Assembly (NCBI RefSeq): GCF_046105845.1
Contig: NZ_CP151004.1
DNA: 64,000 nucleotides
Source of the DNA: Escherichia coli
GTDB taxonomy: Bacteria; Pseudomonadota; Gammaproteobacteria; Enterobacterales; Enterobacteriaceae
Reading direction: 5' to 3' (one strand)
Shown: positions 11,906-53,012 of the stretch, in pieces
Position numbering within the stretch: position 1 is the stretch's first letter
Layout: the number at the start of each line of letters is the position of its first letter
Made by a program: the position numbers and the translations under genes
The notes under the pieces: model-generated
Databases searched by the model: none
Seen by the model: the letters and a program-made list of their open reading frames with translations, nothing else
What the model was told of the DNA's origin: nothing

Positions 11906-12442
11906 TCAGAACGGAATGTCGTCATCAAAGTCCATCGGCGGCTCGTTAGACGGCGCTGCCGGAGCGGACTGCTGCGGGCGAGACTGCGCGCCGCCGCTGA
12001 ACTGATTGCCACCCTGCGGCTGCTGAGGCTGACCCCAACCACCCTGCGGCTGACCACCACCGATATTGCCACCTGCAGGAGCGCCACCACCCTGACGACC
12101 ACCCAACATCTGCATGGTGCCGCCAACGTTCACCACGACTTCTGTGGTGTAGCGATCCTGACCGGATTGATCGGTCCATTTGCGGGTACGCAGCTGACCT
12201 TCGATATAAACCTGAGAACCTTTACGCAGATATTCGCTGGCTACTTCTGCCAGTTTGCCGAACAGCACAACGCGGTGCCATTCAGTCTGCTCTTTCATCT
12301 CGCCGGTCGCTTTGTCACGCCAGGATTCGGAAGTAGCCAGCGTAATGTTGGCAACTGCGCCACCATTTGGCATGTAGCGTACTTCCGGGTCCTGACCCAG
12401 ATTACCAACGAGAATAACCTTGTTTACGCCTCTGCTGGCCAT
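11906..12442 (-). CDS. ssb: Single-stranded DNA-binding protein, 178 aa
   Basis: [32 protein letters not shown]... with Gly/Gln-rich tail ending DFDDDIPF. Confidence 0.98.
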
Positions 12443-12593
12443 GTTCGTGTCTCCTGAAAAAAAATCGTTCTGAATAAGTGTAAACGCGCGATTGTACCAT
12501 TACCAATAGCGCTTTTACTATGTTGTGACCTCGGTTCCGGGAAACAAACCTGGCCAGACATTGTTACACAACACTCCGGGTAATGCATTCCAA

Positions 12594-12613
12594 TACTGTA
12601 TATTCATTCAGGT
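12594..12613. promoter_or_regulatory. LexA (SOS) box shared by divergent ssb and uvrA promoters
   Basis: tactgtatattcattcaggt fits the CTGT-N8-ACAG SOS box. Confidence 0.85.
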
Positions 12614-12696
12614 CAATTTGTGTCATAATTAACCGTTTGTGATCGCCGGTAGCACCATGCCACCGGGCAAAAAAGCGTTTAATCCGGGAAAGGTGA

Positions 12697-15519
12697 ATGG
12701 ATAAGATCGAAGTTCGGGGCGCCCGCACCCATAATCTCAAAAACATCAACCTCGTTATCCCCCGCGACAAGCTCATTGTCGTGACCGGGCTTTCGGGTTC
12801 TGGCAAATCCTCGCTCGCTTTCGACACCTTATATGCCGAAGGGCAGCGCCGTTACGTTGAATCCCTTTCCGCCTACGCGCGGCAGTTTCTGTCACTGATG
12901 GAAAAGCCGGACGTCGACCATATTGAGGGGCTTTCTCCTGCCATCTCGATTGAGCAGAAATCGACGTCTCATAACCCGCGTTCTACGGTGGGGACAATCA
13001 CCGAAATCCACGACTATTTGCGTTTGTTGTTCGCCCGCGTTGGCGAGCCGCGCTGTCCGGACCACGACGTCCCGCTGGCGGCGCAAACCGTCAGCCAGAT
13101 GGTGGATAACGTGCTGTCGCAGCCGGAAGGCAAGCGCCTGATGCTGCTCGCGCCAATCATTAAAGAGCGCAAAGGCGAACACACCAAAACGCTGGAGAAC
13201 CTGGCAAGTCAGGGTTACATCCGTGCTCGTATTGATGGCGAAGTCTGCGATCTTTCCGATCCGCCGAAACTGGAACTGCAAAAGAAACATACCATTGAAG
13301 TGGTGGTTGATCGCTTCAAGGTGCGTGATGATCTTACCCAACGTCTTGCCGAGTCGTTTGAAACCGCGCTGGAGCTTTCCGGTGGTACCGCGGTAGTTGC
13401 GGATATGGACGACCCGAAAGCGGAAGAGCTGCTGTTCTCCGCCAACTTCGCCTGCCCAATTTGCGGCTACAGTATGCGCGAGCTGGAACCGCGCCTGTTT
13501 TCGTTTAACAACCCGGCGGGGGCCTGCCCAACCTGTGACGGCCTTGGCGTGCAGCAATATTTCGATCCTGACCGCGTGATCCAGAATCCGGAACTGTCGC
13601 TGGCTGGCGGTGCGATCCGAGGCTGGGATCGCCGCAACTTCTATTACTTCCAGATGCTGAAATCGCTGGCAGATCACTATAAGTTCGACGTCGAAGCGCC
13701 ATGGGGCAGCCTGAGCGCGAACGTGCATAAAGTGGTGTTGTACGGTTCTGGCAAAGAAAACATTGAATTCAAATACATGAACGATCGTGGCGATACCTCC
13801 ATTCGTCGTCATCCGTTCGAAGGCGTGCTGCACAATATGGAGCGCCGTTATAAAGAGACGGAATCCAGTGCGGTACGTGAAGAATTAGCCAAGTTTATCA
13901 GCAATCGCCCGTGCGCCAGCTGCGAAGGAACCCGTCTGCGTCGGGAAGCGCGCCATGTGTATGTCGAGAATACGCCGCTGCCTGCTATCTCCGACATGAG
14001 CATCGGTCATGCGATGGAATTCTTCAACAATCTCAAACTCGCAGGTCAGCGAGCGAAGATTGCGGAAAAAATTCTTAAAGAGATTGGCGATCGCCTGAAA
14101 TTCCTCGTTAACGTCGGCCTGAATTACCTGACACTTTCCCGCTCGGCAGAGACACTTTCTGGCGGTGAAGCCCAGCGTATCCGTCTGGCGAGCCAGATTG
14201 GTGCGGGCCTGGTTGGCGTTATGTACGTGCTGGACGAGCCGTCTATCGGCCTGCACCAGCGCGATAACGAGCGCCTGTTGGGTACGCTTATCCATCTGCG
14301 CGATCTCGGTAATACCGTGATTGTGGTGGAGCACGACGAAGACGCGATTCGCGCCGCTGACCATGTGATCGACATTGGTCCTGGTGCGGGTGTTCACGGC
14401 GGTGAAGTGGTTGCGGAAGGTCCACTGGAAGCGATTATGGCGGTGCCGGAGTCGTTGACCGGGCAGTACATGAGCGGTAAACGCAAGATTGAAGTGCCGA
14501 AGAAACGCGTTCCGGCGAATCCGGAAAAAGTGCTGAAGCTGACAGGCGCACGCGGTAATAACCTGAAAGACGTGACGCTGACGCTGCCAGTCGGTCTGTT
14601 TACCTGCATCACAGGGGTTTCAGGTTCCGGTAAATCGACACTGATTAACGACACACTGTTCCCGATTGCCCAACGCCAGTTGAATGGGGCGACCATCGCC
14701 GAACCGGCACCGTATCGCGATATTCAGGGGCTGGAGCATTTCGATAAAGTGATCGATATCGACCAAAGCCCAATTGGTCGTACTCCGCGTTCTAACCCAG
14801 CGACCTATACCGGCGTGTTTACGCCTGTGCGCGAACTGTTTGCGGGCGTACCGGAATCCCGTGCGCGCGGCTATACGCCGGGACGTTTCAGCTTTAACGT
14901 CCGTGGCGGGCGCTGCGAAGCCTGTCAGGGCGACGGCGTGATCAAAGTGGAGATGCACTTCCTGCCGGATATCTACGTGCCGTGCGACCAGTGCAAAGGT
15001 AAACGCTATAACCGCGAAACGCTGGAAATTAAGTACAAAGGCAAAACCATCCACGAAGTGCTGGATATGACCATCGAAGAGGCGCGTGAGTTCTTTGATG
15101 CGGTGCCAGCTCTGGCGCGTAAGCTGCAAACGTTGATGGACGTTGGCCTGACGTACATTCGCCTCGGGCAGTCCGCAACCACGCTTTCTGGTGGTGAAGC
15201 CCAGCGCGTGAAGCTGGCACGTGAGCTGTCAAAACGCGGCACCGGGCAGACACTGTATATTCTCGACGAGCCGACCACCGGTCTGCACTTCGCCGATATT
15301 CAGCAACTGCTCGACGTACTGCATAAACTGCGCGATCAGGGCAACACCATTGTGGTGATTGAACACAATCTCGACGTGATCAAAACCGCTGACTGGATTG
15401 TCGACCTGGGACCGGAAGGCGGCAGTGGCGGCGGCGAGATCCTCGTCTCCGGTACGCCAGAAACTGTCGCGGAGTGCGAAGCTTCGCATACGGCACGCTT
15501 CCTCAAGCCGATGCTGTAA
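12697..15519 (+). CDS. uvrA: Excinuclease ABC subunit A, 940 aa
   Basis: [19 protein letters not shown]...; two ABC ATPase modules ([18 protein letters not shown]) and zinc-finger cysteines. Confidence 0.98.
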
Positions 15520-43917: not shown

Positions 43918-44192
43918 TTTCGTCTGCAATCTGAATCGTTCGCCAGTTAATATTTCCATCATAGAGCTTATTATTTTTACGTTATTTGTTTTCCCACTTA
44001 CGATAATTCTCTTTCGTGCTCTGAGTCACGGCAATAGTATTGTTTTCATCAATTTTAGATAATTATCACAATTAAGATCACAGAAAAGACATTACGTAAA
44101 CGCATTGTAAAAAATGATAATTGCCTTAACTGCCTGACAATTCCAACATCAATGCACTGATAAAAGATCAGAATGGTCTAAGGCAGGTCTGA

Positions 44193-45668
44193 ATGAATAC
44201 CCAGTATAATTCCAGTTATATATTTTCGATTACCTTAGTCGCTACATTAGGTGGTTTATTATTTGGCTACGACACTGCCGTTATTTCCGGTACTGTTGAG
44301 TCACTCAATACCGTCTTTGTTGCTCCACAAAACTTAAGTGAATCCGCTGCCAACTCCCTGTTAGGATTTTGCGTAGCCAGCGCTCTGATTGGTTGCATCA
44401 TCGGCGGTGCCCTCGGTGGTTATTGCAGTAACCGCTTCGGTCGTCGTGATTCACTTAAGATTGCTGCTGTCCTGTTTTTTATTTCTGGTGTAGGTTCTGC
44501 CTGGCCAGAACTTGGTTTTACCTCTATAAACCCGGACAACACAGTGCCTGTTTATCTGGCAGGTTATGTCCCGGAATTTGTTATTTATCGCATTATTGGC
44601 GGTATTGGCGTTGGTTTAGCCTCAATGCTCTCGCCAATGTATATTGCGGAACTGGCTCCAGCTCATATTCGCGGGAAACTGGTCTCTTTTAACCAGTTTG
44701 CGATTATTTTCGGGCAACTTTTAGTTTACTGCGTAAACTATTTTATTGCCCGTTCCGGTGATGCCAGCTGGCTGAATACTGACGGCTGGCGTTATATGTT
44801 TGCCTCGGAATGTATCCCTGCACTGCTGTTCTTAATGCTGCTGTATACCGTGCCAGAAAGTCCTCGCTGGCTGATGTCACGCGGCAAGCAAGAACAGGCG
44901 GAAGGTATCCTGCGCAAAATTATGGGCAACACGCTTGCAACTCAGGCAGTACAGGAAATTAAACACTCTCTGGATCATGGCCGCAAAACCGGTGGTCGTC
45001 TGCTGATGTTTGGCGTGGGCGTGATTGTAATCGGCGTTATGCTCTCCATCTTCCAGCAATTTGTCGGCATCAATGTGGTGCTGTACTACGCGCCGGAAGT
45101 GTTCAAAACGCTGGGGGCCAGCACGGATATCGCGCTGTTGCAGACCATTATTGTCGGAGTTATCAACCTCACCTTCACCGTTCTGGCAATTATGACGGTG
45201 GATAAATTTGGTCGTAAGCCACTGCAAATTATCGGCGCACTCGGAATGGCAATCGGTATGTTTAGCCTCGGTACCGCGTTTTACACTCAGGCACCGGGTA
45301 TTGTGGCGCTTCTGTCGATGCTGTTCTATGTTGCCGCCTTTGCCATGTCCTGGGGTCCGGTATGCTGGGTACTGCTGTCGGAAATCTTCCCGAATGCTAT
45401 TCGTGGTAAAGCGCTGGCAATCGCGGTGGCGGCCCAGTGGCTGGCGAACTACTTCGTCTCCTGGACCTTCCCGATGATGGACAAAAACTCCTGGCTGGTA
45501 GCCCATTTCCACAACGGTTTCTCCTACTGGATTTACGGTTGTATGGGCGTTCTGGCAGCACTGTTTATGTGGAAATTTGTCCCGGAAACCAAAGGTAAAA
45601 CCCTTGAGGAGCTGGAAGCCCTCTGGGAACCGGAAACGAAGAAAACACAACAAACTGCTACGCTGTAA
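44193..45668 (+). CDS. xylE: D-xylose:H+ symporter (MFS sugar porter), 491 aa
   Basis: MNTQYNSSYIFSITLVATLGGLLFGYDTAVISG...; sugar-porter signature motifs. Confidence 0.97.
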   Translation: MNTQYNSSYIFSITLVATLGGLLFGYDTAVISGTVESLNTVFVAPQNLSESAANSLLGFCVASALIGCIIGGALGGYCSNRFGRRDSLKIAAVLFFISGVGSAWPELGFTSINPDNTVPVYLAGYVPEFVIYRIIGGIGVGLASMLSPMYIAELAPAHIRGKLVSFNQFAIIFGQLLVYCVNYFIARSGDASWLNTDGWRYMFASECIPALLFLMLLYTVPESPRWLMSRGKQEQAEGILRKIMGNTLATQAVQEIKHSLDHGRKTGGRLLMFGVGVIVIGVMLSIFQQFVGINVVLYYAPEVFKTLGASTDIALLQTIIVGVINLTFTVLAIMTVDKFGRKPLQIIGALGMAIGMFSLGTAFYTQAPGIVALLSMLFYVAAFAMSWGPVCWVLLSEIFPNAIRGKALAIAVAAQWLANYFVSWTFPMMDKNSWLVAHFHNGFSYWIYGCMGVLAALFMWKFVPETKGKTLEELEALWEPETKKTQQTATL

Positions 45669-50485: not shown

Positions 50486-50794
50486 AACAATTTCCCTTCA
50501 TTGAATGAATGGAGATTTACCCAAAAACATTTCGGGCGGGATCGAGTATACACAACTAAAGCATGCGAATTACGGTGTGGGGAATTAGCGATGGGGTTTT
50601 AGGATAATTGGAATGAATATCAAATATAAGTTTCAACTTATATATAAATAAGATTAAAAATCAAAAAGTTAAAATAGAATCAAAAATAATCAACCTACGT
50701 ATTTTCCGAAATCAATCACGATTAAAAATTTATTTTAGGATTAAACTCACAGCATGATTTCCGTTAAATCACAGACAAGGGGATTTATCTGATA

Positions 50795-50827
50795 AAAAAT
50801 GCCGACATAACGTCGGCATTTTTATTA
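50795..50827. terminator. Bidirectional intrinsic terminator downstream of pgi
   Basis: aaaaaatgccgac-ataa-cgtcggcatttttatt. Confidence 0.85.
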
Positions 50828-50838
50828 AGGTTATTTAA

Positions 50839-52699: not shown

Positions 52700-53012
52700 T
52701 ATAAATGTACTACCTGCGCTAGCGCAGGCCAGAAGAGGCGCGTTGCCCAAGTAACGGTGTTGGAGGAGCCAGTCCTGTGATAACACCTGAGGGGGTGCAT
52801 CGCCGAGGTGATTGAACGGCTGGCCACGTTCATCATCGGCTACAGGGGCTGAATCCCCTGGGTTGTCACCAGAAGCGTTCGCAGTCGGGCGTTTCGCAAG
52901 TGGTGGAGCACTTCTGGGTGAAAATAGTAGCGAAGTATCGCTCTGCGCCCACCCGTCTTCCGCTCTTCCCTTGTGCCAAGGCTGAAAATGGATCCCCTGA
53001 CACGAGGTAGTT
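52700..53012 (+). promoter_or_regulatory. lysC leader containing the lysine riboswitch (L-box)
   Basis: Long structured 5' leader before lysC with L-box-like segments (agaggcgc, ggaggagcc, gggggtgcatcgccgaggtga); antisense ORFs here are artefacts. Confidence 0.85.

Follow-up and report, generated by a model that had tools for sequence, protein, structure and literature searches.

The spacer between ssb and uvrA raises the question of whether one LexA operator lies between these two divergent SOS genes and, if it does, whether it is shared by both in effect as well as in position. The uvrA/ssb box has figured in publications from the early 1980s onwards and, to our knowledge, stands in every list of the Escherichia coli SOS regulon. 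The DNA analysed here is a stretch of 64,000 nucleotides of E. coli chromosome, referred to below at its full length as the window, in which ssb (11906..12442, minus strand; single-stranded DNA-binding protein, 178 aa) and uvrA (12697..15519, plus strand; excinuclease ABC subunit A, 940 aa) are transcribed away from each other across a 254-bp spacer (12443..12696). A first-pass annotation, made from the sequence alone, had named these two as the flanking SOS genes, and open reading frames, RefSeq annotation, and Pfam matches (SSB, E = 4.6e-41, for ssb; UvrA_DNA-bind and UvrA_inter for uvrA) all agree with it. A 501-nt query spanning the site is found in 5425 of 5426 complete E. coli genomes, with annotated ssb and uvrA and in many cases at 100% identity.

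The same annotation had placed a LexA box within 12590-12615, and the exact 20-mer TACTGTATATTCATTCAGGT (= tactgtatattcattcaggt, plus-strand reading) indeed occurs once in the window, at 12594..12613 inside the spacer, with a score above chance. Within TACTGTATATTCATTCAGGT the CTG arm lies at 12596..12598 and the CAG arm at 12609..12611, giving a CTG-N10-CAG core in a 20-bp imperfect palindrome related to TACTG(TA)5CAGTA, the SOS box consensus and invariant core being those given in PMC11228462 and PMC6590174. Measured from its nearer edge in each direction, the box is 84 nt away from the ATG of uvrA and 152 nt away from that of ssb; its far edge is 171 nt from the latter. The window also contains lexA (28816..29424, minus strand), which encodes the cognate repressor and has two boxes of its own. 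All the sequence-testable defining features of a gammaproteobacterial LexA operator are found at 12594..12613, with binding and expression resting on the literature, and we consider it very probable that this is the known LexA operator in the divergent control region of E. coli uvrA and ssb. The site is already well described, and nothing about it is new.

The E. coli K-12 uvrA/ssb SOS box (heterology index 6.98) is the same object, with matching organism, 20-mer, flanking genes, and distances; there too the far edge is about 170 nt from ssb and the box lies over the uvrA -35 region, with no difference from the arrangement seen here. For the K-12 box, PMC9505508 cites Brandsma et al. 1983 and 1985 and Fernandez de Henestrosa et al. 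2000. Table 7 of PMC3009722 gives this sequence as its uvrA motif, ACTGTATATTCATTCAGG, and the 20-mer is also carried by a uvrA-promoter plasmid (bioRxiv 10.1101/620195). LexA binding at the uvrA/ssb site is implied by papers cited in PMC9505508, and a literature search for LexA ChIP evidence at the site returned no citable paper.

LexA matrix scoring, the test that the first-pass annotation had itself named, was run with an independent matrix, a symmetrised log-odds model built from 18 published E. coli LexA boxes upstream of UV-induced genes (Table 4 of PMC3009722), a set from which the uvrA/ssb box is absent. The box scored high, at 16.5 bits, ranking third among all window positions behind the two lexA operators only and falling within the range that the training sites themselves span when left out one at a time (9.4 to 29.3, mean 19.9 bits). 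Such a score has a chance of 9.2e-7 per position, corresponding to 0.059 expected sites per 64-kb window and about 2e-4 per 254-bp spacer, and 7 of 200 whole-window dinucleotide shuffles reached 16.5 bits anywhere along their length. As the runner-up 20-mer in the spacer reaches 1.2 bits, the spacer holds a single box, and the claim of a single operator stands. The heterology index that we derive from the 18-site set is 8.5 to 9.2, compared with published values of 6.98 (PMC9505508) and 6.2 (PMC11228462). A CTGT-N8-ACAG scan of the window allowing one mismatch gave 18 matches against 17.7 expected and was uninformative; because it lacked discriminating power it was replaced by the matrix. At the other extreme, the perfect consensus TACTGTATATATATACAGTA, even when 3 mismatches were tolerated, had zero matches in the whole window, being too strict even for the lexA operators.

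Those operators served as the internal positive control for the matrix. The lexA-dinF boxes AACTGTATATACACCCAGGG and TGCTGTATATACTCACAGCA (29431..29471, minus strand), just upstream of the lexA open reading frame, hold the top two matrix scores; the box at 29452..29471 (21.1 bits) is one of the 18 training sites, and that at 29431..29450 (18.5 bits) lies outside the training set. The double operator shares with the uvrA/ssb box its CTG-N10-CAG core, its repressor, and the window, and is comparable to it in score (18.5 and 21.1 versus 16.5 bits); it differs in layout, with a pair of neighbouring boxes close before the start codon of a single operon as opposed to one box serving two divergent promoters. 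The gene dinF of that operon is assigned by synteny to a 459-aa open reading frame (27418..28797), and the window carries both the repressor gene lexA and one LexA target. The position of lexA is offset by 58 nt between the window and strain AR_0013, which implies at least one indel between 15519 and 28816.

The fourth matrix match, GTCTGAATGAATACCCAGTA at 44187..44206 (plus strand), was considered as a possible new LexA site and rejected. At 9.9 bits it scores less than the average best match of shuffled windows (11.1 bits), and it runs across the ATG (44193) of an open reading frame for a xylE-like sugar transporter of 491 aa, for which reasons it is read as most likely a chance match. In the window this transporter frame (approximately 44193..45668) lies downstream of malG, while AR_0013 runs from malG straight to psiE, so that the two strains differ in gene content here. 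Three further features of the window, all known from E. coli, exceed their Rfam gathering scores: the small RNA sraL (8502..8642, plus strand; 153 bits), which overlaps the 3' end of soxR (8635..9099, minus strand), the small RNA STnc430 (50682..50830, plus strand; 89 bits), and a lysine riboswitch (52725..52921, plus strand; 99.5 bits).

To follow the site across species, orthologous loci were sampled without reference to the box, using a degenerate DNA pattern for the first 13 uvrA codons in species-representative genomes, which yielded at least 120 loci. Among the matches listed, ssb is directly divergent from uvrA in 72 loci, which by record title belong to Enterobacterales apart from a few metagenome bins. 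From the matches listed we assembled 70 distinct ssb-uvrA spacers, 200 to 340 nt long and counting that of the window itself, and each of these 70 listed spacers contains one box of at least 10.4 bits (median 16.4), with a second box above 5.4 bits in none of the 70; among shuffled spacers, a score of 10 bits is reached by only 0.8%. When the 70 listed spacers are aligned with MAFFT, conservation over 20 nt is highest at 12592..12611 and 12594..12613, and mean identity is 0.895 over the box versus 0.566 over the whole spacer. Box positions 3-5 (CTG), 8-10 (TAT), and 16-18 (CAG) are invariant in 70 of 70 spacers among the matches listed, and positions 1, 6, 11 to 15, 19, and 20 vary across the same set. 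This pattern of invariant and variable columns is the one expected for selection on LexA contacts, and it shows strong constraint on the contact bases. The second-ranked conserved block of the listed spacers, 12618..12638, contains TGTCATAAT.

The right half-site of the box is imperfect, with T in place of the consensus A before CAG (box position 15) in 57 of the 70 spacers among the matches listed. The other 13, which include Klebsiella and Enterobacter species, carry A at this position, and most of these listed A-type spacers read AACAG and score about 22 bits. The imperfection (box positions 14 and 15, window 12607..12608) is itself conserved. It is conceivable, though we regard it as rather unlikely, that the imperfect right half-site is not drift and represents a selected compromise between LexA affinity, the uvrA -35 element, and the -10 element of the distal ssb promoter, giving intermediate repression tuned by lineage.

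Within E. coli, the exact 30-mer around the box is absent from about 13% of complete genomes, a figure from which polymorphism inside the box was suspected. The change found in sampled variants lies outside it, at 12614, the first base after the box on the way to the uvrA -10 element, where two sampled variants, NU14 and CNR20180903 (both urine isolates), have C to T; the window does not carry this change. The box itself is unaltered in each of the four E. coli variants sampled, one of them a record with a diverged upstream flank.

How the operator meets the uvrA promoter can be read from the conserved block beside it. Under strict criteria, a scan for sigma-70 promoters and terminators detected nothing in the spacer, and the sole uvrA promoter was seen only by a relaxed scan allowing an extended -10 element. 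The putative element spans 12621..12629 (plus strand), with TG at 12621..12622, one intervening base, and CATAAT at 12624..12629; T12621, G12622, A12625, T12626, A12627, and T12629 are 100% conserved in the 70 spacers among the matches listed, and in 46 of the 70 listed spacers the box and the -10 element are 10 nt apart. With a conserved TGnCATAAT situated 10 nt downstream of the box, the uvrA -35 region falls inside the box, where the candidate hexamers are TATTCA (12601..12606) and TTCATT (12603..12608), both on the plus strand. PMC9505508 likewise reports that the SOS box overlaps the uvrA -35 region.

On the opposite strand, ssb has three promoters, of which only the most distal is under LexA control according to PMC9505508, which cites Brandsma 1985. 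A candidate for this distal promoter lies at 12597..12626 (minus strand), with ATGACA at 12626..12621, an 18-nt spacer, and TATACA at 12602..12597. The match is weak, at 9 of 12 consensus positions and with a -10 hexamer that lacks the conserved final T. On these sequence matches, a distal ssb promoter at 12597..12626 may have its -10 element inside the box and its -35 element back to back with the uvrA -10. Candidate proximal ssb promoters, from the relaxed scan, fall at 12477..12520 (minus strand) and comprise TGGTACAAT, with a -10 at 12496..12491, and TACACT at 12482..12477; they are clear of the box, and their conservation is moderate (0.69 to 0.71 over 12473..12502 in the 70 spacers among the matches listed). 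These elements would fit the two constitutive ssb promoters of PMC9505508, a putative assignment made from their position and motifs. The layout is that of one box between divergent genes that overlaps the uvrA promoter, with the overlap of an ssb promoter represented by a weak sequence candidate. An ArcA binding site in the ssb-uvrA spacer (here 12443..12696) is also mentioned in the Figure 1 legend of PMC9505508.

The published expression data bear on whether position translates into control. PMC9505508 describes a single SOS box between ssb and uvrA that controls both genes, and associates its heterology index of 6.98 with moderate affinity and high basal expression. In one E. coli RNA-seq study, uvrA, which the box represses directly, shows 3.9-fold induction by AZT and 4.4-fold lexA dependence, as against 1.5-fold induction and a lexA dependence of 1.0 for ssb (PMC11228462). 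Three microarray studies and several protein assays saw no ssb induction, as summarised in PMC9505508, and the gene fusions of Brandsma et al., as cited in the same paper, placed the distal ssb promoter under LexA control. By qPCR, ssb induction by UV and gamma rays is LexA-dependent and lost in lexA3 (PMC9505508). The ssb effect in E. coli is small and disputed, and the weakness of the response is accounted for by LexA control of only the most distal of the three ssb promoters. The first-pass view of an operator common to both genes is supported, with one qualification: the sharing is correct by position and in the literature, and it is unequal in effect, with uvrA responding far more than ssb.

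Salmonella enterica has the same divergent ssb/uvrA pair and a single common box of equal strength (heterology index 6.99), and both genes are listed there as damage-inducible (PMC8072944). On nalidixic acid, uvrA is induced 11.2-fold and ssb 9.6-fold in Salmonella (PMC8072944), the latter against 1.5-fold to about 2-fold for ssb in E. coli, a comparison across studies that differ in assays and inducers.

The arrangement changes further afield. Outside Enterobacterales, among the matches listed, ssb is still divergent from uvrA and lies 1.5 to 2.1 kb away. In these listed loci the gap is occupied by an MFS transporter gene on the ssb strand, to which Vibrio adds a GalU-like nucleotidyl transferase; loci of the MFS type among the matches listed include L011, L013, L020, L030, L037, L043, L059, L068, L076, L116, and L120. 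In the sample, among the matches listed, the directly common spacer of 250 bp appears to be specific to Enterobacterales. In Vibrio, Zobellella, and Catenovulum, among the matches listed, a LexA box that keeps the arms seen in E. coli precedes the uvrA ATG by 40 to 76 nt; the boxes of Vibrio, at 21 to 25.6 bits, exceed the E. coli one in score and have other inner sequences, and those of Zobellella and Catenovulum score 15.2 and 20.1 bits. In contrast to the enterobacterial layout, the uvrA box of these three genera is not in a spacer directly common with ssb, other genes lying in between. In Alteromonadales, Shewanella, and Idiomarina, the 400 nt upstream of uvrA contain no E. coli-type box of at least 5 bits among the matches listed, and uvrA at these loci may, judging from sequence, be outside the LexA regulon; box-less uvrA loci among the matches listed include L011, L020, L029, L030, L037, L058, and L069.

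Three individual records depart from these patterns, the first two of them within Enterobacterales. An Enterobacteriaceae metagenome bin (L099) has a 562-nt ssb-uvrA spacer whose best box scores 6.2 bits, and a Candidatus Symbiopectobacterium locus (L115) has neither ssb upstream of uvrA nor a box; both may be losses, perhaps in a reduced or symbiont genome. A contig of 2882 nt from a metagenome bin labelled Hyphomicrobiales (L057) has a uvrA start of enterobacterial type and a box, TACTGGATATTCGTTCAGCT, identical to the Acerihabitans and Sodalis boxes, and this contig is probably mis-binned.

Three other readings of the site can be set against these results. That the 20-mer is a chance LexA-like palindrome in an AT-rich spacer might be entertained from the window alone, where 7 of 200 shuffles reach its score and the loose consensus scan stands at chance level. 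The expectation for the spacer itself is about 2e-4 such sites, and the box coincides with the maximum of the conservation footprint; above all, it recurs at the equivalent position in 70 of 70 spacers from many genera among the matches listed, against 0.8% of shuffled ones. The cross-species result effectively refutes a chance origin, to which we assign a negligible probability. A real but different constraint is the second reading, in which the block is kept solely because core promoter elements of both genes overlap there and its likeness to a LexA site is incidental. Since the box overlaps the putative uvrA -35 and possibly an ssb -10, part of its conservation could be promoter-derived, and the conserved imperfection of the right half-site, where 57 of the 70 listed spacers have T at box position 15, would suit such an origin. 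What is invariant, however, is a pair of arms 10 nt apart together with TAT, whereas positions 11, 12, 14, and 15, which belong to the candidate -35 hexamers, vary. The score in an independent LexA matrix is far above chance, the uvrA boxes of Vibrio, Zobellella, and Catenovulum among the matches listed keep the same arms around other inner sequences, and LexA-dependent expression is published (PMC9505508, PMC11228462); we hold a purely promoter-based explanation to be highly improbable.

The remaining reading accepts a genuine LexA operator and lets it serve uvrA only in practice, with ssb driven by its proximal, LexA-independent promoters and not meaningfully SOS-regulated. The disparity between the two genes in RNA-seq (PMC11228462) and the lack of ssb induction in the microarray and protein work summarised in PMC9505508 speak for it, as do the 152 to 171 nt that separate the box from the ssb ATG, the moderately conserved promoter-like elements closer to ssb, and the observation that where an MFS transporter gene splits ssb from uvrA any box adjoins uvrA (among the matches listed). 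Against it stand the qPCR results from lexA3 and SOS-constitutive strains (PMC9505508), the 9.6-fold rise of Salmonella ssb on nalidixic acid with the same box (PMC8072944), and the fusions of Brandsma et al. that put the distal ssb promoter under LexA control (cited in PMC9505508). We judge an operator for uvrA alone to be unlikely, and favour the known LexA operator that is common to both genes.

For this common operator, the data are consistent with a model built on the established course of SOS control, in which an operator-bound LexA dimer blocks RNA polymerase until RecA-ssDNA filaments formed after damage bring about LexA self-cleavage and derepression (PMC6590174). In the undamaged cell, a LexA dimer would occupy the imperfect palindrome through its CTG and CAG arms, with steric occlusion as the presumed mode of repression, and the bound repressor would also hinder the most upstream ssb promoter, which would fire the opposite way from the same stretch of DNA. 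On DNA damage, RecA filaments on single-stranded DNA would trigger LexA self-cleavage, the operator would be vacated, and transcription would rise, by about 4-fold for uvrA and slightly for ssb in E. coli. The slight rise of ssb would follow from the high basal expression given by its two proximal promoters outside the box. The moderate fit of the operator to consensus, with a heterology index of about 7 and an imperfect right half-site, would yield intermediate repression, which may suit two genes that are needed in the absence of damage too.

The site has calibration value, having been recognised from raw sequence and then confirmed by an independent matrix, whose top three matches are the three known LexA operators of the window, with nothing further above chance. 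Beyond this, the cross-species footprint illustrates one operator serving two divergent genes unequally, and lineage tuning through the right half-site, if true, could explain why ssb induction looks much stronger in Salmonella than in the E. coli reports.
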